Of a stretch of DNA of 64,000 bases, positions 25,792-38,470 are shown one piece after another. The notes beneath the pieces were generated by a model. It searched no databases, was not told the DNA's origin, and saw only the letters and a list, made by a program, of their open reading frames with translations. Position 1 is the first letter of the stretch, and each line of letters opens with the position of its first letter. Origin of the DNA: an uncultured Candidatus Saccharibacteria bacterium (lineage in GTDB: Bacteria > Patescibacteriota > Minisyncoccia > Phycocordibacterales > JACOZG01); contig CAZQDR010000003.1 of assembly GCA_964591715.1 (NCBI GenBank), forward strand, positions 269-64,268, in the 5' to 3' direction. Made by a program: the position numbers and the translations under genes.

Positions 25792-26376
25792 TTAGAGGTG
25801 ACTGTGGTGTAAGGCTTGATTAATAATTTCGAGCGCCAGCTGCTGGCGCTCGGCCGACAACTCGAGCGGCGCCATGTCCCAGTCGTTGAAAGCAAAAATG
25901 ACCTCGAGCTCCGGGCGCTCCTCTACATAACCCAAACGGCGCAAAAGCCGCGCCACCCAAATTAGCTCAAAATTGACTAGCTCCGCTTCGGTCAAAAAAG
26001 GTCGTTCCAAAAAATGGGCTCCGCTTTTAAACTCCTCAAAAAAATCGGGCTGGGCCACTTCACCGGTTACTAAGCGCAAAATCAGTTGGGCAACCCGGGC
26101 CAGGAGCTGCAGGCGCACCGCTTCGCGGTGCGCCGCCAATTCCCCCGCCTCAACATGCACCACGCGCCAGACCTCCCGGCCTCGCACCAACGAGACCTCC
26201 GGCCAACTAAATAATTGCAGATTATAACGGAGCTTAGACTTTAATTCCCGCAAACCTTGGGCGGTAGCGTTAACCAAACCGTGATCACGCGTATACAAAG
26301 TCAGCGTCCGGGTTGCTTCGCTCGCCTCTCGGACACCCAACACGACCGCTGGCGTGGTGTAAATTTGATGCGACAT
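25792..26376 (-). CDS. recO: DNA repair protein RecO
   Basis: 194 aa; N-terminal OB fold pattern typical of RecO. Confidence 0.6.
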   Translation of the reverse strand: MSHQIYTTPAVVLGVREASEATRTLTLYTRDHGLVNATAQGLRELKSKLRYNLQLFSWPEVSLVRGREVWRVVHVEAGELAAHREAVRLQLLARVAQLILRLVTGEVAQPDFFEEFKSGAHFLERPFLTEAELVNFELIWVARLLRRLGYVEERPELEVIFAFNDWDMAPLELSAERQQLALEIINQALHHSHL

Positions 26377-29300
26377 TATTCGTAACGAAAAGCGCTCGCG
26401 CAGGTCGCGACTTTTATTTCGTGCTCATACTTCTCGGCCAAGCTCTGTTTGGCAATCGGTATAACCACTTCCGCTTGTTCTCCTGCCTTCAAGCCGCTTT
26501 CTTTACGCCAATCCTGAATTTCGCGAATCAAATCGCGCAGTTCCCCCTCCTCCTTAAGTTCAGGAGTGATAGTCAAATCAAGTTCTACCACTGCCGACAA
26601 GTTAGGATCAAAGATTACCGCTTTAACATTTACTTCGTCTTGGATAAGTTGAGCCAGTTCAGCGGAGAGCGGAGCACTTTTGGCTTTAAGTTCTTTTAGT
26701 GGTTGGCGAACTTTAATCGCGGCTTTGGCTCGCGCCTCTAAGCCACCCGAGACGAGCTGGCGCACGAGTTGCATCGCGGTAATAATTTCTTCGTCGCTCT
26801 TGTCGGCCTCGGGCCAATGCTCTAAGTGCACGCTCTCCGCGCCACCTTTCAATTTCAAATAAATTTCCTCAGCAACAAAGGGCGTAAATGGGGCCATCAA
26901 GCACGACAACACCAACAGCGTCCGGCGGAGCGTATCCATCACTGCCTGCGCCTCAGCGGGATCAGTGGGCTTAAAGCGATCGCGCGACCGGCGTAAATAC
27001 CAAGTTGATAAATCGTCCACAAATTCGTCGATGGGCCGCAAAGCCCGATCAAGCTCATAAGACTCCATCGCCGCTGTTACTAATCCAATCACTTCGTTAA
27101 GCCGGTCGTTAATCCAACGATCTAAAATATGAGTACTAGCGGCATCGCTCGGAACGTGGGCGCCGGCGTACAGTTCATAAAACGCCACCACGTTCCGCAG
27201 ACGGCCCAGCACCCGATTACTGGTCTCGCGCAAACCACGCTCCGAAAAATTAAATTCTTCAGCATGTACCGCTGGTGATGAGAGCAAGTAAAAACGCAAC
27301 GCGTCCGCGCCAAAAGTATCAATCGTGGGTTCCAGATCGGGATAATTTTTTAGACGCTTAGACATCTTTTGGCCATCCTCGGCTAAAATCAAACCATTCA
27401 CTACGACACGCTTAAAGGGGGGGCGATTAAAAAGTCCCAGCGAGAGCACCAGCAAAACATAAAACCAGCCGCGAGTTTGATCCAAACCTTCGGCAATAAA
27501 GTCCGCGGGAAAATGCTTTTCAAACTCTTCCTTGTTGGCAAACGGATAATGTAACTGGCCGTAAGGCATGGAACCGGACTCAAACCACACATCAAAAACA
27601 TCGGGTACGCGCGCCATCTCGGCACCACACTCGCAACGGAGTTTAACCTCATCAATATACGGCCGGTGAAAGTCGAGCTCGTAGGCTTGATTGTGCGGGA
27701 GAGCGACAAAGGGCAGTGGTCGCGATTCGGCGGTTTTTAAAAAGTAACGATCCTCACTCTGCGCGGCTTCGGCCTCGTGATCATTAAAGCCTTGGGCTCC
27801 CACCATCAATAACCAGCCCACCGCTTCGTGAGTGATCAGTAAAATATTTTTACCCGCATAACGAGCGTCAATCTCATACAGCGACTGGAGCGCCCGCGCC
27901 TTCACCTCATGAAAGTTTTCCCCCGCTGGTGGCGCCTTAGTAAAGCGCTCGGCTCGACCACTGAAAAAAGCGTGGAACTTAGCCACCGACCCCCCCTCCA
28001 ATTCGCCAAAGCCCACCTCGCGCAGGCGCTCATCCAAAACCACTTGATCGGCCGGTACTCCTAAAGCCTCCGCCATGAGCGCCGCCGTCTCTCGTGTTCG
28101 CAAAACTGGCGAAGTAATGATCAGATCAATTTTTTCCTTAGCCAAAGTTTTACCGGTGGCTTCTACTTGCTCACGGCCATTTTCCGTTAAATGATTGTCG
28201 CCATCGAGCGCCGAGGTAACAATGCTTTGTACGTTCGACTGGGCCTCGCCGTGACGCATGACCCAATAATTATTTTTTGGCTGCCGCTTAGCAGTGAGCT
28301 CCTCGAGTGAGCCAATCACTTCAATTTTTTTGCAGCTTTCGCAACGCCAGACCGGTAGCGGCGCCCCCCAGTAACGCGAACGCGATACTGCCCAATCGCG
28401 CGCCCCCTCCAGCCATTTACCAAAGCGACCGTCTTTAATATATTCCGGCACCCAAGTTACGCCCTCGTTTGCCTTCAAGAGTGCCTCCTTCATCGTACTT
28501 ACAGCAATAAACCAGGATGATGACGCGTAGTTTAAGAGAGGTGTATCGCAACGCCAACAATGAGGGTAGGGGTGAGTAATTTTTTCCTTCGCAAAAAAGG
28601 TGCCATGCTCCTGCAAATATTTTAAGACTGCAATGTCAGCCGAGAGACGCTCCTTCTCATCTTCACTCTTGGGTTTAACTGGCAGACCGGCAAAATCTTT
28701 GACCGCCGCTTTAAAGTGACCGCTAGTATCAACGTGCTGGATAAAAGGTAAATTTTTAGCCTGACCCAACTTTAAGTCGTCCTCGCCGAATGCCGGTGCA
28801 ATATGGACAATGCCGGTACCATCCTCGGTTGTCACAAAATCCGCGCCGTAAACCTGCCAACCGTTCTCCTTATTTTTCAGCGTCGTATCATTCTGATAAT
28901 AATCAAAAACTGGTTGATACTTTTTACCCACCAATTTTTGTCCGGTAAATGTTTCTTCAATGGTAAAATTATCGGTTAAAACTTTTGTGGCCAGCGCCTC
29001 CGCCACAATCAACTTAATTCCGCCCTTTTCGACTCGAACATAGTTCAGTTCGGGATTAACCGCCAGCGCCACATTACCTGGCAGCGTCCAAGGTGTCGTG
29101 GTCCAGGCCAACAAGTAAGTCCCCGGCTCATCAACCAGTTCAAATTTTACCGTCACCGACAAATCCGTGACATCTTTGTAACCCTGATTAACCTCAAAGT
29201 TAGCCAGCGTTGTCTCACAGCGCGGGCACAAATGCATAGACTTGTAACCTTCGTAGGCCAAGCCCTTGTCGTAGAGTTGTTTAAAAATCCACCACACCGT

Positions 29301-29771
29301 CTCGGTGTAACTGGAGTCCATCGTTTTATAATCGTTCTCCATGTCCACAAAACGGCCAATGCGGGGAATAATCCTTTTCCACTCGTCAGCATAACGGAGC
29401 ACGCTCTCTCGTGCCTTTTGGTTAAAGACGTCAATCCCCAACGCTTCAATATCCTTTTTGGTTTTTAGACCCAACTCTTTCTCGATCAGGTTCTCGATCG
29501 GCAAGCCGTGACAATCCCAACCCCAGCGACGCGCCACTCTAAAGCCGCGCATGGTTTGATAGCGTGGAATAGCGTCTTTAATCGAGGTCGGCAGCAAGTG
29601 ACCAAAGTGAGGCAAACCGGTCGCAAAGGGCGGCCCATCATAAAAAACGTACTCGCCTTTGGGCGCATCTTTAGCCAGGGACTTGGCGAAAATTTGGTGA
29701 TCTTGCCAGAACTTAAGGATCTCTTCCTCGCGTTTGGCAACATCGGATTTTTGGGGCAGAGCTTCGGCCAT
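26376..29771 (-). CDS. ileS: isoleucyl-tRNA synthetase carrying an inserted histidine-phosphatase (PGM-family) domain
   Basis: 1131 aa; HIGH (PHFGHLL), WDCHGLP, GWFY, KMSKR; insertion aa ~500-700 with RHGEAQSN ... TSPVLRTRETA ... LITHEAVGW motifs. Confidence 0.9.
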   Translation of the reverse strand: MAEALPQKSDVAKREEEILKFWQDHQIFAKSLAKDAPKGEYVFYDGPPFATGLPHFGHLLPTSIKDAIPRYQTMRGFRVARRWGWDCHGLPIENLIEKELGLKTKKDIEALGIDVFNQKARESVLRYADEWKRIIPRIGRFVDMENDYKTMDSSYTETVWWIFKQLYDKGLAYEGYKSMHLCPRCETTLANFEVNQGYKDVTDLSVTVKFELVDEPGTYLLAWTTTPWTLPGNVALAVNPELNYVRVEKGGIKLIVAEALATKVLTDNFTIEETFTGQKLVGKKYQPVFDYYQNDTTLKNKENGWQVYGADFVTTEDGTGIVHIAPAFGEDDLKLGQAKNLPFIQHVDTSGHFKAAVKDFAGLPVKPKSEDEKERLSADIAVLKYLQEHGTFFAKEKITHPYPHCWRCDTPLLNYASSSWFIAVSTMKEALLKANEGVTWVPEYIKDGRFGKWLEGARDWAVSRSRYWGAPLPVWRCESCKKIEVIGSLEELTAKRQPKNNYWVMRHGEAQSNVQSIVTSALDGDNHLTENGREQVEATGKTLAKEKIDLIITSPVLRTRETAALMAEALGVPADQVVLDERLREVGFGELEGGSVAKFHAFFSGRAERFTKAPPAGENFHEVKARALQSLYEIDARYAGKNILLITHEAVGWLLMVGAQGFNDHEAEAAQSEDRYFLKTAESRPLPFVALPHNQAYELDFHRPYIDEVKLRCECGAEMARVPDVFDVWFESGSMPYGQLHYPFANKEEFEKHFPADFIAEGLDQTRGWFYVLLVLSLGLFNRPPFKRVVVNGLILAEDGQKMSKRLKNYPDLEPTIDTFGADALRFYLLSSPAVHAEEFNFSERGLRETSNRVLGRLRNVVAFYELYAGAHVPSDAASTHILDRWINDRLNEVIGLVTAAMESYELDRALRPIDEFVDDLSTWYLRRSRDRFKPTDPAEAQAVMDTLRRTLLVLSCLMAPFTPFVAEEIYLKLKGGAESVHLEHWPEADKSDEEIITAMQLVRQLVSGGLEARAKAAIKVRQPLKELKAKSAPLSAELAQLIQDEVNVKAVIFDPNLSAVVELDLTITPELKEEGELRDLIREIQDWRKESGLKAGEQAEVVIPIAKQSLAEKYEHEIKVATCASAFRYE

Positions 29772-33073: not shown

Positions 33074-33502
33074 CTACTTGCGGCCCGTGCTACCAAAAGC
33101 ACTGGTGCCCCGAGAAGAATCGGCCAGTTCAGCGGCTTCTTCCAACTCGGCGACCGCGACGGGATAAATGATAAGTTGAGCCACCTTATCCCCCACTTCA
33201 ACGGTATATGCCTTGTCGCTCAAATTAACCAAGTGAACATTATACTCGCCGCGATAACCAGCATCGAACACGCCACCCATGGTATGTAATCCTGCTTTAG
33301 AGATACTCCCCTTGTCTTTAATAATCGCCGCATAACCAGCTGGGAACTCTAAGGCAAAACCCAAATGGAATCGCGCGTGATCACCCGGCAGAATAGTTTG
33401 TTCTTCTAGAGCATACAAATCTAATCCGGCGTCTCCAGGATGACCATAGGTTGGCTGCTTTGCTTCCGGCTTTAATTTTTTAAACTTTATGGACAGGGAC
33501 AT
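33074..33502 (-). CDS. dut: dUTP diphosphatase
   Basis: 142 aa; trimeric dUTPase motifs incl. GVFDAGYRGE. Confidence 0.9.
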   Translation of the reverse strand: MSLSIKFKKLKPEAKQPTYGHPGDAGLDLYALEEQTILPGDHARFHLGFALEFPAGYAAIIKDKGSISKAGLHTMGGVFDAGYRGEYNVHLVNLSDKAYTVEVGDKVAQLIIYPVAVAELEEAAELADSSRGTSAFGSTGRK

Positions 33503-34187
33503 GTTTCTTCACTAATTTATAAACTTGCTCATGGACCGCTTCGGGCGTTTGGCAAACCATTCCGGCACAACACTCAATGCGGCGCCACTTTTTATCTTTC
33601 TCGGCTAAGGCCAGCGCGCTCTGGCGCGAATTTTTAAGATGGAGCAGATTATCCTCGGCAACATCTTTGCGGCCCTTTAAATATTTCTTACGGCGCTTGG
33701 CGATCTTTTTCTCAAGCCACAGCTTACTCACCTCAAATGGCACGTCTAAATAAATCACCAAATCTGGTTTGGGAATTTTAAAAACGCCGTACTCCATTTT
33801 ATCAAGCCAAGTTAAAAACTCCTGACGCTTTTTAGGATCAGCGATTTTGCCACCCTGGTGGATTTGGTTAGCACTGACATAACGATCAGCGACAACAACA
33901 AAGCCAGCCGCGAGCCACTCTTTAATTTTGGCACTAGTCTCAAAACGGTCCGCGGCATAGAGCACTGAGGCTAGGCGTGGATCAGCCTGAATAAAATCAC
34001 CATGGAGTCCGGAAAGATATTCGCCAATTAAAGCGCCAAAAAAATTATCATAATAACGAGGGAAGTCGATCGTTTTAACCGGCACCTTCTCTTTTTTCAA
34101 CCGGTCAGCTAAAAGTTTAGTTTGCGTCGCCTTGCCTGAACCATCAATCCCGTCAATCACCACTAACCGTCCTGCCGTTTTAGTCAT
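33480..34187 (-). CDS. tmk: thymidylate kinase with Cys-rich C-terminal tail
   Basis: VIDGIDGSGKATQ P-loop, DRF motif. Confidence 0.85.
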   Translation of the reverse strand: MTKTAGRLVVIDGIDGSGKATQTKLLADRLKKEKVPVKTIDFPRYYDNFFGALIGEYLSGLHGDFIQADPRLASVLYAADRFETSAKIKEWLAAGFVVVADRYVSANQIHQGGKIADPKKRQEFLTWLDKMEYGVFKIPKPDLVIYLDVPFEVSKLWLEKKIAKRRKKYLKGRKDVAEDNLLHLKNSRQSALALAEKDKKWRRIECCAGMVCQTPEAVHEQVYKLVKKHVPVHKV

Positions 34188-35445
34188 TTTGTTTTTTAAT
34201 TTTTCTTAAAATTTGATCAATCTTGCCGGCCAATATTTTTACCTGTTTTTCTTTGGCACCGCGGGTAGTCTCGGCCGCTAAACCAATCCGGATTCCCGAC
34301 GGGTCAACGGGCGGCCGAGTATCAAAAGGAATCGCATTTTTGTTCACAATAATCCCCGCCTGCTCTAGCGCCTCACTCGCTGCCTGACCACCAACACCGA
34401 CGCCGTTTAACCAAGTGTCCAGCAAGATCAAGTGGGTGTCGGTGCCATCACTGACTAGCCGCCAGCCCAGCTTCTTTAACTCCATTGCTAGCGTTTTGGT
34501 GTTCTTGATAATTTGAGTGGCGTACTTCTTAAACGCCGGCGTGGCTGCCTCGGCAAGCGCCACCGCCACGCCGGCAATTTGGTTAACATGCGGCCCCCCT
34601 TGGATACCCGGGAAAACCGCTTTATCTATTAAGTCAGAAATAAGCTTCGGTTCGGGCGCAGACTTTCTTCCATCACGGTCAACGAGGGAAATGATTCCAG
34701 AAAGCCCGCGCCCAACCTGCGCCGGTACCCGCCGGCTGAAGATTAATGCCGCTCTCGGACCACGCAAAGTTTTGTGGGTGGTAGTGGTCACGACGTCAGC
34801 GTATGGGAAAGGGCTCGGATGGACGCCCGCGGCCACCAGACCAGCAATGTGCGACATGTCTACCATCAGGATTGCTCCGCAGGCGTCGGCAATCTCGCGA
34901 AACTTTTTGAAATTAATCTGACGCGGATAAGCCGTAAAACCGGCGACAATAATATTTGGTTTTTCTTTAACTGCCAAAACTTTAACCGCTTCGTAATCTA
35001 ACTGTTCACTATCACGGTCAACGGTAAACGGGATTTGCTGCCAGGCTTTGCCAGTTAGGGAGACTTTGTGACCGTGCGTTAAATGACCGCCATGCGCTAG
35101 CGACATGCCCATAATTTTCCCCCCGATTGGGACGAGCGCAGTGTACACCGCCAAGTTGGCCGGTGAACCAGAAAGCGGCTGAACATTCACGGCCCACTTC
35201 TTTGGGCTAAGTTTAAAAAGTTTCAGCGCTCGTTCTTGGCAAAGTCGCTCTACCTGATCAATGATTTTATTGCCGCCATAATAACGCGCGCCCGGATAAC
35301 CCTCGGCATACTTATTATTTAATTCCGAACCCAGCGCCGCCAAAACATCGGCGGAAACATAGTTCTCTGACGCAATTAAATTAACTACCTTCTGTTGTCG
35401 CTCTCGCTCGGCCTTGATCAATCGTTCAATCGGTTTATCTTTCAT
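34180..35445 (-). CDS. glyA: serine hydroxymethyltransferase
   Basis: 421 aa; TTTHKTLRGPR PLP-lysine motif. Confidence 0.95.
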   Translation of the reverse strand: MKDKPIERLIKAERERQQKVVNLIASENYVSADVLAALGSELNNKYAEGYPGARYYGGNKIIDQVERLCQERALKLFKLSPKKWAVNVQPLSGSPANLAVYTALVPIGGKIMGMSLAHGGHLTHGHKVSLTGKAWQQIPFTVDRDSEQLDYEAVKVLAVKEKPNIIVAGFTAYPRQINFKKFREIADACGAILMVDMSHIAGLVAAGVHPSPFPYADVVTTTTHKTLRGPRAALIFSRRVPAQVGRGLSGIISLVDRDGRKSAPEPKLISDLIDKAVFPGIQGGPHVNQIAGVAVALAEAATPAFKKYATQIIKNTKTLAMELKKLGWRLVSDGTDTHLILLDTWLNGVGVGGQAASEALEQAGIIVNKNAIPFDTRPPVDPSGIRIGLAAETTRGAKEKQVKILAGKIDQILRKIKKQND

Positions 35446-35454
35446 GTTTAAGAT

Positions 35455-35943
35455 TTATTTTTTACGACTGCCGTGGAATCTGAGATGGGCATCATCCGTA
35501 ACATACAGCGTTTTTATCCCCGCCTCCAGCATCCGCTCCCAGCAAGGTTGGCAGGCCCACCAGTGACCCCACAAATAGACTTCCGCCCCCGCGGTGACTT
35601 CCCCATTTTTTATTGCATCCGCCACGGCTCGTGATTCTGAGTGAAGCTTGTAATTAGAGCACCCCGGACAAAGCCAATACTTTTGGCCAGTTTTAATTTT
35701 TAACTTGTGCCGGACACACCAACCCTTGGTGTGAAGATCAGCCAAAAAAGCATTCTTTAGTGCTGATTGATTGGCTCCCCGACCGATAATTTTACCGCCC
35801 TCAACAACCACCGCCCCACTTGGCTGATTACGTTCCGTGGCCGACTGAAAACGCATTTTCTTGGCTTCAGCCATAAATTGGTCCGTCTCAGGCACCAACT
35901 TAATCTCGCAACCAGCAGGCAAATAAGGGTAGATAATCGTCAT
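35455..35943 (-). CDS. dCMP deaminase (ComEB/T4 cd-like zinc deaminase)
   Basis: HAE...PCxxC zinc motifs (HAESRAV, CQPCWERM). Confidence 0.85.
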   Translation of the reverse strand: MTIIYPYLPAGCEIKLVPETDQFMAEAKKMRFQSATERNQPSGAVVVEGGKIIGRGANQSALKNAFLADLHTKGWCVRHKLKIKTGQKYWLCPGCSNYKLHSESRAVADAIKNGEVTAGAEVYLWGHWWACQPCWERMLEAGIKTLYVTDDAHLRFHGSRKK

Positions 35944-35982
35944 GTGGCCATTGTCTCATAGCTCTAGTATAATTGGCAAAAT

Positions 35983-36819
35983 ATGACCGCCTTTGACCGA
36001 ATCTACCAGAATCTGTTAAGGCAAATCATGACCGAGGGCATTGCGGAAATGAGCGAGCGCACCGGCCACGAAACCCGGGCCATCCCCGGCCTCCACTTTA
36101 CGACCGACCTCCAAAAAGACGGCTTCCCCCTACTTACCCTGCGCAAAATACCAATTCGGGTCTTCGTGGCCGAGCAAATTTGGTTTCTCCTTGGCTCGCG
36201 CAAACCAGCCGACTTTCTGCGGGAGTACACTAAAATTTGGGATGACTTTACCAACCCAGGCGATGTCGTCACGGTCGCTTACGGTTACCGTTGGCGCAAA
36301 CATTTTGGCCGCGATCAAATCGCCCTGTTGATTGAACTTTTAACCAAGGAGCCAAGTTCGCGCCACGGCGTCGTAATTGCTTGGGATCCAGCCCAGGATG
36401 GCTTGTCGCTGTTTAAAAAGAAAAACGTCCCCTGTCCCTACACCTTTACCGTTAATATTATTGGCGGACACCTCCATCTCCACAACATGATTCGCTCTAA
36501 CGACGTCATGCTCGGCATGCCTCACGACGTGGCGGGCTTTGCTTTGCTCCAGTGCATTTTAGCCGAACGATTAGGAGTAAAGCCGGGCATTTACTCGCAC
36601 TCTATTTCTAACGCTCATGTTTACGACATTCACTACTCAGCCGCGGAAGAAATAATTAGCCGCCACAACGATCATCCTAATGTGACACTCGAGATTCCCG
36701 CCAACACCTTTGCCCGGATCGAGAACCGCGACCCGGCGATAGCCAAAGAACTAATCGATCAACTGACTAACCAGTACACACCAATGGATGCCATTAAAGG
36801 TTTACAAATTGTCCTCTAA
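35983..36819 (+). CDS. ThyA-family pyrimidine C5 (hydroxy)methylase with dCMP-type active-site signature (not a canonical thymidylate synthase)
   Basis: 278 aa aligns to E. coli ThyA without gaps over PCH..LPFN: C146 kept (C151), H147->P, RSCD->RSND, N177->D182; stop overlaps folA start. Confidence 0.75.
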   Translation: MTAFDRIYQNLLRQIMTEGIAEMSERTGHETRAIPGLHFTTDLQKDGFPLLTLRKIPIRVFVAEQIWFLLGSRKPADFLREYTKIWDDFTNPGDVVTVAYGYRWRKHFGRDQIALLIELLTKEPSSRHGVVIAWDPAQDGLSLFKKKNVPCPYTFTVNIIGGHLHLHNMIRSNDVMLGMPHDVAGFALLQCILAERLGVKPGIYSHSISNAHVYDIHYSAAEEIISRHNDHPNVTLEIPANTFARIENRDPAIAKELIDQLTNQYTPMDAIKGLQIVL

Positions 36820-37316
36820 TGATTCCAGCGTTTATTATTGCCAGCGTGACCGCCGACGGCCTGATTGCCCGTGATGCTAGTCACGCGGCCACCTGGTCCA
36901 GCCAAGCTGATAAAAAGTTTTTTGTGACCCGAACCAAAGCCGCTGGTGCGATCATTATGGGCGCTAAAACTTTTGCCACTATTGGCCGACCCCTCCCAGA
37001 ACGCTTAAATGTGGTTTACACCCATCAACCTTCACCTCACCCTGAAGTCTTGGCCACCGCTTTGCCGCCAGCGGAACTACTGGCGGAACTTGAGCGCCGG
37101 GGCATTAGGGAGGCGGCCATTTGCGGGGGCAGTTCAATTTATACGCTCTTTCTTAAGGCCGGCCTGGTCCAGAAAATTTATTTAACTGTTGAACCACGCC
37201 TCTTCGGCCAAGGCCTCTCGCTTTTTAATCAGGAACTGGACCTCACCCTCAAGCTTTTGTCGACTCAACAATTAGCCCCAGACGTCGTATTATTGGAGTA
37301 TCAAGTAATCACCTAA
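36819..37316 (+). CDS. folA: dihydrofolate reductase
   Basis: 165 aa; DHFR fold motifs (IASVTADGLIA, GGSSIY). Confidence 0.85.
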   Translation: MIPAFIIASVTADGLIARDASHAATWSSQADKKFFVTRTKAAGAIIMGAKTFATIGRPLPERLNVVYTHQPSPHPEVLATALPPAELLAELERRGIREAAICGGSSIYTLFLKAGLVQKIYLTVEPRLFGQGLSLFNQELDLTLKLLSTQQLAPDVVLLEYQVIT

Positions 37317-37318
37317 TC

Positions 37319-37960
37319 ATGGCTGTTATCACCAAAGAAGACATTATCGAACGAATCAAGGGAGGGAGCTTAAAGTTTGTCCCCAATCTCGACGTCTTCC
37401 AGCTTCAAAGCCACTCGGTTGACTTGCGGCTGGGCTTTACTTTTATGCTGCCCAAGATTTGGCATCTCACTACCCGCGGCCGCGAGTCACTCGACATCCT
37501 CCATTTTGATAAACGGACTCAAGAATATTTTGATATCGTAGAACTAGAGGAGGGTCAATACTTTGATCTCTTGCCTCAAGAATATATTTTGGTTTCCACC
37601 CTCGAGACTTTAACTGTCCCTAAAGATTTGATGGCTGTGCTTTATCCGCGCTCCTCGACCAATCGCAAAGGTTTGTCGCTCGACTTAACGGGCATTATTG
37701 ATTCGGGTTACGAAGGCCAGCTAAGCTTACCGATTCGCAATAATACTCGTTCGCAAACAGTGCGACTTTATCCGGGCGAGCGTCTCTGCCAAGTGGTTTT
37801 TGAAGAACTAACCCAAACAATTAACCCGCGCCAAAGTAAGTATCACCAGCGTGACATCATTGACGGCGTTCAGCGCGAAGCCGAAACGGAAGTTAAGTTG
37901 TTGTTAGCCGGAAAAATAAAAGAGTTAAAGCGTGACCACGCTGTCGAGGGCTTGATATAG
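37319..37960 (+). CDS. dCTP deaminase/dUTPase-superfamily protein lacking the Dcd catalytic Glu
   Basis: 213 aa; Dcd-like VDLRLG, PRSSTNRKGL (Ser/Arg kept) but E138 position = Pro138; dUTPase motif III Asp also replaced (IDSGYEG). Confidence 0.7.
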   Translation: MAVITKEDIIERIKGGSLKFVPNLDVFQLQSHSVDLRLGFTFMLPKIWHLTTRGRESLDILHFDKRTQEYFDIVELEEGQYFDLLPQEYILVSTLETLTVPKDLMAVLYPRSSTNRKGLSLDLTGIIDSGYEGQLSLPIRNNTRSQTVRLYPGERLCQVVFEELTQTINPRQSKYHQRDIIDGVQREAETEVKLLLAGKIKELKRDHAVEGLI

Positions 37961-38470
37961 CTCTTCCACCTCGCCATTGTTATTGATCACCACCGAAGCG
38001 GCGTCTTTAAGCGACCGGATTTGAATCTCGGTTTCCAGTTGCTGATCTTTTTGAAATTGCTCCCAAGTTTTGCCGTTATCATCTGGATTCTCACCGCGAA
38101 CTGATAAACGCTTAAATCGAACCTCCGGGTCAGCCTCAAGATAAATTAATTTAAATTGGGGTAACTTTTGGAGAGCCTTAATGTCAGGCAAGCGACGGAT
38201 ACCATCAATGACCACCAGATCAGTCTTGGCGCCCGCCGCGTCCTTGGCCACTATCTCGGAAAATAAATCTTCGCCGAAGGTCTGGCGCAAGGCCAGCGAC
38301 AGTGCCGACATGTTCTCTCGCGTCTCGGTTAGATACAAGCGAGCCATAACGTCGCGCAGTGGCGTAGAAAAGCGATACGACTCGGCGTTAAACTTTTTAG
38401 CTAAATATTTCGTACTGAACGTCTTTCCTGAAGCCATCTCCCCCGTCAAACCAATAATTAATTTAGCCAT
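37925..38470 (-). CDS. P-loop kinase, candidate deoxynucleoside-monophosphate kinase
   Basis: 181 aa; GLTGEMASGKT P-loop; VIDGIRR and C-terminal VINNNGEVEELY resemble my recollection of phage T4 gp1 dNMP kinase (unverified). Confidence 0.55.
   Translation of the reverse strand: MAKLIIGLTGEMASGKTFSTKYLAKKFNAESYRFSTPLRDVMARLYLTETRENMSALSLALRQTFGEDLFSEIVAKDAAGAKTDLVVIDGIRRLPDIKALQKLPQFKLIYLEADPEVRFKRLSVRGENPDDNGKTWEQFQKDQQLETEIQIRSLKDAASVVINNNGEVEELYQALDSVVTL

Follow-up and report, generated by a model that had tools for sequence, protein, structure and literature searches.

In textbook thymidylate synthesis, dUMP is methylated by ThyA or ThyX. It is already known that phages use the same fold in another way, with ThyA homologues that have Asp at position 177 (Escherichia coli numbering) acting as dCMP methylases and being paired with deaminases. 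In Xanthomonas phage Xp12, all of the cytosine is replaced by 5-methylcytosine (5mC), and the thymidylate synthase (TS) homologue of the phage yields 5-methyl-dCMP (bioRxiv 10.1101/2024.12.05.627091). In the same study, five of seven metagenomic Asp177 homologues gave 5-methyldeoxycytidine (5mdC) in vivo, and deaminases encoded in cis with Asp177 homologues turned 5mdC nucleotides into dT. Positions 177 and 147 are the top two discriminators between TS homologues on cytosine-modified and unmodified viral contigs, and changing Asn177 to Asp switches TS from dUMP to dCMP methylation (PMC8670742); the equivalent N229D variant of L. casei TS is available as a structure bound to dCMP (PDB 1NJC). 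Here we describe an Asp177-type ThyA homologue from the chromosome of an ultra-small bacterium of the Paceibacteria (Parcubacteria), in the Candidate Phyla Radiation (CPR). The gene is encoded in a stretch of 64,000 nucleotides (the window) from contig CAZQDR010000003.1, deposited as an uncultured Candidatus Saccharibacteria bacterium. Based on its sequence and its neighbours, we consider it moderately likely that this protein is a dCMP C5-methyltransferase that feeds a pathway from dCTP to dCMP, 5-methyl-dCMP and dTMP in a cellular organism.

The ThyA open reading frame (ORF), at 35983-36819, matches PF00303 over residues 7-248 in a profile search (E = 1e-52). An original prediction made from the DNA letters alone had singled out positions 36433-36528, which are exactly the stretch from the codon of Cys151 (tgt, 36433-36435) through the codon of Asp182 (gac, 36526-36528). 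It placed Cys151, Pro152, Asn173 and Asp182 on E. coli C146, H147, C168 and N177, and it proposed that the catalytic Cys, Arg166 (R171 in the window protein) and Tyr94 (Y100) are kept. We tested this register with phmmer against three solved thymidylate synthases, with BLASTP against E. coli ThyA (E = 1e-31) and with MAFFT. Between Cys151 and Asp182, the three methods give the same register with no gap (the segment aligned by phmmer is pcpytftvniigghlhlhnmirsndvmlgmphdvagfall, 40 residues), and these independent alignments return all of the proposed correspondences. A shift of register that would restore Asn is therefore excluded. When TS, T4 gp42 and Xp12-type sequences are aligned together, the window protein has Asp at N177 and reads PCP as Xp12 does.

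Most of the catalytic residues are kept. Written as window protein = E. coli, these are R26=R21, E64=E58, W86=W80, Y100=Y94, R127=R126, C151=C146, R171=R166, S172=S167, D174=D169, H212=H207 and Y214=Y209, and all of them except W86 are among the residues that we found to be invariant in the 120 homologues described below (C151, R26, R127, R171, S172, D174, H212, Y214, Y100 and E64). In TS, the equivalents of H212 and Y214 contact the 3'-OH, and their retention is consistent with a 2'-deoxy substrate. The changed residues are P152 (H147), N173 (C168), H181 (F176) and D182 (N177), to which we add F89 (W83), H128 (R127) and I170 (Q165), all three absent from the original prediction. The changes from Asn177 to Asp and from His147 to Pro stand as they were predicted. 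The change at Cys168 is real, but canonical TS can have A, G, C, T or N at position 168, so that RSCD to RSND is not diagnostic by itself. The C-terminal tail, which in TS closes over the folate site (PMC5175136), aligns as far as the last residue of E. coli TS. An AlphaFold2 (AF2) model of the protein has a pLDDT of 81.5, and Foldseek matches it to TS structures with E ~1e-18 and a TM score of ~0.7.

The signature is not a peculiarity of one genome. A search of 5.8 billion proteins returned more than 2,000 ThyA homologues, and we analysed the best 120, which are 69-97% identical to the window protein; the named members among them come from metagenome-assembled genomes (MAGs) of Paceibacterota/Parcubacteria and are labelled 'thymidylate synthase'. 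We also collected 80 loci from GTDB species representatives, including Taylor-, Kaiser-, Adler-, Nomura-, Colwell-, Vogel- and Doudnabacteria, so that residues could be counted in 81 sequences including the window. Asp182 is found in 120/120 database homologues and 81/81 locus sequences, Asn173 in 118/120 and 81/81, and Pro152 in 118/120 and 76/81, while Phe89 is present in all 81 locus sequences. Given that Asp182 is invariant in more than 200 homologues, it is neither a sequencing error nor due to chance, and a one-off mutation is likewise excluded.

The same residues separate the family on a larger scale. In an exhaustive HMMER search across 1.84 billion representatives of 50%-identity clusters, each of the top 91 clusters covering the site has Asp, and the canonical W83-R127-H147-Q165-F176-N177 signature first appears at about rank 92. 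The positions co-vary en bloc between this signature and F-(Q/H/R)-P-hydrophobic-(Y/H)-D: canonical clusters read W-R-H-Q/M-x-F-N, and the window protein reads F89, H128, P152, I170, H181 and Asp182. In a neighbor-joining tree, which has no bootstrap and in which the deep branching is unreliable, the canonical TS sequences including that of E. coli form a single clade, and the window protein falls among the Asp-type sequences in a subclade other than that of Xp12. The original prediction was to be given up if many genuine TS of related lineages proved to have the same motif. The motif is indeed universal in Paceibacteria proteins annotated as TS, but this counts against the prediction only formally, because those annotations are automatic and none of the proteins that carry them has been characterised. 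We read the distribution as showing what appears to be an ancient retargeting of ThyA across the clade.

By BLASTP, the window protein is closer to the Xp12 TS homologue (170 bits, 37% identity) than to E. coli TS (105 bits, 31% identity). Its best match among 50,697 phage genomes is a protein of Pseudomonas phage ZQG1 (37.5% identity), which reads PCP...RSSD...LPYD and is 69% identical to the Xp12 protein. The original prediction had argued for cytosine by analogy with T4 dCMP hydroxymethylase. The analogy to a cytosine enzyme is supported, although the comparator has to be replaced by the dCMP methylase of the Xp12 type. Taken together, the Asp177/Pro147 signature and the proximity to Xp12 favour the idea that the enzyme has been retargeted from uracil to cytosine and is putatively active.

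The gene sits in an island of eight nucleotide metabolism genes (Table 1). The start codon of the dihydrofolate reductase (DHFR)-like gene overlaps the stop codon of ThyA (ATGA at 36816-36819). On the other side of ThyA, a divergent deaminase gene is directly adjacent in all of the related loci (80/80). The gene for a protein of the dCTP deaminase (DCD) family lies downstream of ThyA in 76/80, and the four exceptions are loci whose sequence ends less than ~0.6 kb from ThyA. Serine hydroxymethyltransferase (SHMT) is part of the cluster in 62/80 loci and DHFR in 51/80. Sixty loci extend 4 kb or more upstream, and 22 of these 60 have thymidylate kinase (Tmk). The plus strand of the intergenic region has TGGCCA-17-TATAAT, ending 9 nt upstream of the ThyA ATG. 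Because the gap is only 39 bp and the TATAAT is 9 nt from the ATG, the promoter-like sites suggest that the deaminase and ThyA transcripts may be near-leaderless, divergent and co-regulated.

Table 1. Features of the ThyA cluster and of the ThyA ORF, in positions of the window.
Feature	Position	Strand	Details
dUTPase, conventional	33074..33502	-	PF00692 E = 4e-25
Thymidylate kinase (Tmk)	33480..34187	-	PF02223 E = 1e-20
Serine hydroxymethyltransferase (SHMT), supplies methylenetetrahydrofolate (CH2-THF)	34180..35445	-	PF00464 E = 2e-158
Divergent dCMP-deaminase-like gene, 162 aa, proposed 5-methyl-dCMP deaminase	35455..35943	-	
Divergent intergenic region, 39 bp, promoter-like sites on both strands	35944..35982	.	
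ThyA-family ORF, Asp177-type, proposed dCMP C5-methyltransferase	35983..36819	+	278 aa, PF00303
Cys151-Pro152 (E. coli C146-H147), nucleophile kept, His to Pro	36433..36438	+	
Arg171-Ser172-Asn173-Asp174 (E. coli R166-S167-C168-D169)	36493..36504	+	
His181-Asp182 (E. coli F176-N177), pyrimidine-specificity position is Asp	36523..36528	+	
TS-type C-terminal tail QYTPMDAIKGLQIVL, aligned to E. coli GYDPHPGIKAPVAI	36775..36816	+	MAFFT
DHFR-like gene	36819..37316	+	DHFR_1 3e-17, RibD_C 4e-18
DCD-family protein, 213 aa, without catalytic Glu, proposed (5-methyl-)dCTP pyrophosphatase	37319..37960	+	PF22769
Extra P-loop (d)NMP-kinase-like gene	37925..38470	-	AAA_17, weak DNMK/dNK/CoaE, best NCBIfam PRK08356

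Association of Asp-type ThyA with enzymes of this kind is also seen in gene fusions, which we found among the more distant Asp-type proteins. One is a natural fusion of a dCMP deaminase to ThyA(Asp177) (P0143, locus L087 10001-11302) on a phage-like contig with ribonucleotide reductase genes, and another joins an NTP pyrophosphohydrolase of the MazG/PRA-PH type to ThyA(Asp177) (P0157).

The DCD-family protein scores above the TIGR02274 cut-off (109 vs 92.8), and it would ordinarily be called a dCTP deaminase. At the position of the catalytic Glu (E. coli E138), however, it has Pro138 (codon 37730-37732), in the sequence LSLPIRN, where four solved dCTP deaminases read (I/V)TLELxN (SLPIRN aligned over TLELxN). 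Pro is shared by every copy at the loci (76/76) and by every homologue taken from the database (120/120), and those homologues that have a name are annotated as dCTP deaminase. The equivalents of S111, R115 and D128 are kept, as is a dUTPase-like IDxGY motif. A 36%-identical protein with the same change from Glu to Pro adjoins the deaminase-ThyA(Asp) fusion on the phage-like contig (L087 11335-11973), which is unrelated to the window, and therefore the variant travels with Asp-type ThyA. Using narrow patterns, we found no match to the Glu-less variant in IMG/VR. Since Xp12-type operons have a nucleotide hydrolase of the HAD or MazG type at the place of the DCD-like gene, the DCD-like protein may be a putative (5-methyl-)dCTP pyrophosphatase, either feeding dCMP into the pathway or keeping 5-methyl-dCTP from DNA. 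The family to which the 'dCTP deaminase' of 37319-37960 belongs is probably misannotated, and its activity is probably one that is new to the dUTPase/DCD superfamily.

In sequence, the deaminase next to ThyA is very divergent. It has the cytidine deaminase (CDA) fold (PF00383, E = 2e-10) and scores far under all of the NCBIfam cut-offs. It has an intact H-x-E ... C-x-x-C zinc site and a second conserved cluster of one His and three Cys. In the deaminase family, this second cluster is invariant (H71, C76, C92 and C95), GHWWxCxxCW takes the place of the usual PCxxC, and there is a conserved YPYLP motif near the N-terminus. We see no clear counterpart in the family to G(Y/W)N(A/G), the usual allosteric motif of dCMP deaminases. 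5-Methyl-dCMP is a known substrate of dCMP deaminases (PMC12088426).

These genes could be arranged in the following pathway. The DCD-family protein, having lost the Glu for deamination and kept the motifs for nucleotide and triphosphate binding, would convert dCTP and/or 5-methyl-dCTP to the monophosphate. ThyA(Asp), as a folate-dependent pyrimidine C5-methyltransferase with a base pocket set for cytosine as in the Xp12 type, would then convert dCMP to 5-methyl-dCMP. In this step, CH2-THF would supply the carbon as well as the reducing power, and dihydrofolate (DHF) would be released. SHMT would provide the CH2-THF and DHFR would recycle the DHF. The divergently transcribed deaminase would convert 5-methyl-dCMP to dTMP, and Tmk would convert dTMP to dTDP. 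Methylation would thus come before deamination and not after it as in textbooks, and the pathway would bypass dUMP. Reductive methylation is favoured over hydroxymethylation because of the TS-type tail and the translationally coupled DHFR. Our data show directly which residues are present, how invariant they are, how the homologues rank and which genes are linked or fused; the substrate, the product, the order of the steps and the activities of the DCD-like protein and the deaminase we infer from sequence and gene context.

The strongest competing explanation is an ordinary dUMP-methylating TS, in which Asp182, perhaps protonated, binds uracil in a pocket remodelled by Pro152, His181 and Ile170, and the deaminase acts in the classical order. 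SHMT, DHFR, Tmk, dUTPase and a dCMP deaminase are exactly what the classical pathway needs, the Paceibacteria homologues are all annotated as TS, and the CPR literature takes ThyA as normal. The window protein also passes the TIGR03284 cut-off for TS (125 vs 108.35 bits). Furthermore, it is the sole ThyA or ThyX homologue that we can see: no second ThyA and no ThyX was found in the 1.26 Mb made up of the window and the 80 loci, which at about ±10 kb per genome is weak evidence.

Several other observations also weigh against a dCMP methylase. Gene content cannot give the order of the steps, since a deaminase, ThyA and DHFR would equally serve the route from dCMP to dUMP to dTMP, and the conventional dUTPase encoded in the cluster points to dUTP/dUMP metabolism in the cell. 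In the AF2 model, pLDDT is below 50 at residues 83-107 and 136-151, and these low-confidence loops hold Tyr100 and the residues just upstream of Cys151. Two of the seven tested Asp177 homologues did not give 5mdC (bioRxiv 10.1101/2024.12.05.627091). Between the CPR deaminase and the Xp12/mSCD-type deaminases, homology is undetectable beyond the zinc motif, so the selectivity of the latter for 5mC cannot be transferred by homology.

Against an ordinary TS, Asn177 is the established determinant for uracil and its effect is reversed by Asp (PMC8670742; 1NJC). It is also not only this residue but the whole co-varying set of W83, R127, H147, Q165, F176 and N177 that has been replaced, and of the characterised homologues, a dCMP methylase is the closest. 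The window protein scores far under seven of the eight NCBIfam cut-offs for TS (e.g. NF002497, 147 vs 327). Finally, the 'dCTP deaminase' that would feed dUMP lacks its catalytic Glu in every copy. On this evidence, we believe that the protein is unlikely to be an ordinary dUMP-methylating TS.

A dCMP hydroxymethylase like T4 gp42, whose product 5-hydroxymethyl-dCMP would go into a modified base or into a metabolite of the nucleoside type, is the possibility raised by the analogy in the original prediction, and Asp at the N177 position together with RSND is indeed common to the window protein and the T4 enzyme. The BLASTP match to T4 dCMP hydroxymethylase is only 40 bits at 25% identity, however, and the window protein keeps the folate-closing TS tail that the T4 enzyme does not have. 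Hydroxymethylases release tetrahydrofolate (THF) and do not need DHFR (PMC5175136), yet here DHFR is translationally coupled to ThyA. No glycosyltransferase or other gene for hypermodification is present in the ThyA cluster, and the context is chromosomal and housekeeping throughout the whole class. Altogether, this makes a hydroxymethylase very improbable.

To our knowledge, cell-wide replacement of cytosine is unprecedented, and if Paceibacteria did have DNA with bulk 5mC, they would be the first cellular organisms with a non-canonical base installed before replication. We give hardly any credence to such a module, which would make 5-methyl-dCTP to replace some or all of the C before replication as in Xp12, with the DCD-like protein as a dCTPase and dTMP as a side product: the set of NTP hydrolase-like protein, ThyA(Asp), deaminase and DHFR does mirror the C-replacing phages of the Xp12 type, and an extra dNMP-kinase-like gene adjoins the cluster in the window, but that kinase is found at only 1/80 related loci, a dedicated kinase is seemingly required because 5mdC entered E. 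coli DNA only with T4 gp1 kinase (bioRxiv 10.1101/2024.12.05.627091), and nothing in the sequence demands cell-wide replacement.

The extra P-loop kinase gene (37925-38470) is thus not a conserved member of the cluster. It is convergent with the DCD-like gene, and the 3' ends of the two genes overlap by 36 nt. Both the kinase and the deaminase faintly match NF041025, a model for anti-phage dCTP deaminases.

The surroundings of the cluster are those of a cellular chromosome. Genes for ArgRS, IleRS, L11 and NusG are near the ThyA cluster in the window, and gyrase, SecE and a sigma factor are encoded on related contigs, which are up to 686 kb long. A phage or prophage origin of the window is excluded by these housekeeping neighbours and by the conserved synteny on the long contigs. 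The IleRS (26376-29771, minus strand, 1131 aa) has a His_Phos_1 histidine-phosphatase domain inserted at residues 503-667, and a related genome encodes the same architecture (L003 1400-4942). Positions 1-2000, at the left end of the window, have a GC content of 0.40, compared to ~0.50 elsewhere. Many GTDB records with the Paceibacteria-type cluster (L008, L010, L011 and others) are titled 'uncultured Candidatus Saccharibacteria bacterium'; it looks as if this title had been given generically, or wrongly, to MAGs of Patescibacteria.

In the literature that we searched, dCMP methylases are described only in phages or as engineered enzymes, and the thyA of the CPR is treated as that of an ordinary TS. 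What is new here, in our judgement, is that the putative dCMP methylase is chromosomal and class-wide, lies in a thymidylate cluster of housekeeping type and has a Glu-less DCD as its partner. If the proposal is true, a major and very abundant class of bacteria makes dTMP by a third route, one in which methylation comes first and which has so far been documented only as a side-path in 5mC phages. CPR genes now annotated as 'thymidylate synthase', 'dCTP deaminase' and 'dCMP deaminase' would have to be relabelled in their thousands, the models of metabolism in these host-dependent organisms would have to be revised, and the logic of antifolates and of inhibitors of the 5-fluorouracil type would be affected. 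It would also raise the question of how the cells bar 5-methyl-dCTP from their DNA, for which the Glu-less DCD is a candidate sanitising or feeding enzyme.

Compared to canonical E. coli ThyA, the window protein has the same fold, the same catalytic Cys, Arg, Ser, Asp, Tyr, Glu and His, the same C-terminal tail and the same linkage to DHFR and SHMT. It differs by N177D, H147P, W83F, R127H, Q165I and F176H, by the absence of the seven-residue AWPTPDG loop and by a five-residue insert upstream of the catalytic Cys. The engineered L. casei N229D and E. coli N177D enzymes have the change from Asn to Asp at the same position and, like the window protein, an intact set of Cys, Arg, Tyr and Glu. These mutants are reportedly crippled catalysts (Liu & Santi 1992; Hardy & Nalivaika 1992). 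Relative to them, the window protein adds P152, F89, I170, H128 and N173, which presumably optimise the chemistry for cytosine.

Among enzymes that work on cytosine nucleotides, T4 gp42 has Asp at the specificity position (D182 of the window protein aligns with T4 D179) and the RSND motif in common with the window protein; its substrate is of the cytosine type, which is only proposed for ours. Unlike the window protein, the T4 enzyme has no TS tail; it releases THF and hydrates the methylene group. The CMP hydroxymethylase MilA/BcmA, which we compared by description, has a five-helix C-terminal domain where the window protein ends at the TS tail, and it belongs to a secondary-metabolite cluster rather than to housekeeping nucleotide metabolism (PMC5175136).

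In the phage modules described by MetaGPA, TS(Asp177) and a 5mC-selective deaminase (mSCD) of the CDA fold are paired in cis as they are in the CPR, and the pairing was read as synthesis of dT from 5mdC (bioRxiv 10.1101/2024.12.05.627091). The modules found by MetaGPA belong to viruses, and their deaminase mSCD-B5 works on triphosphates, whereas the CPR module is chromosomal, universal in the class and linked to Tmk. Because of the linkage to Tmk, we suggest that deamination in the CPR may take place at the level of the monophosphate.

The closest of the characterised proteins is the Xp12 enzyme (QNN97214, MT664984), with its relatives in PaMx74, ZQG1 and other Bradleyvirinae. The Xp12 type and the window protein both have the ThyA fold and PCP for PCH, N177 and W83 are replaced in both by Asp and Phe and Q165 by a hydrophobic residue, and the window protein, Xp12 and ZQG1 all read PCP ... 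P[HY]D. Unlike E. coli TS, both clades read AYGYRWRxHFGRDQ without the AWPTPDG loop and have the five-residue insert, in WDPxxDGL..KNVPCP. Both have a TS-like C-terminal region and adjoining genes for a dCMP deaminase and DHFR; the Xp12 operon consists of a hydrolase, TS, dCMP deaminase and DHFR, which the gene set of the CPR cluster matches, and the deaminase is in cis to ThyA in the Xp12 and ZQG1 operons just as it is in the 80 CPR loci. There are also clear differences. The clade of the window protein has His or Gln at Arg127 and A, H or S at residue 176 instead of Tyr, the two partner deaminases show no relationship outside the zinc site, and the partner NTP hydrolase of the CPR is a DCD-family protein rather than one of the HAD or MazG type. 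In contrast to the phage enzyme, the window protein is encoded on a cellular CPR chromosome among aminoacyl-tRNA synthetase and ribosomal genes, and its presumed role is the supply of dTMP rather than the production of DNA with bulk 5mC.

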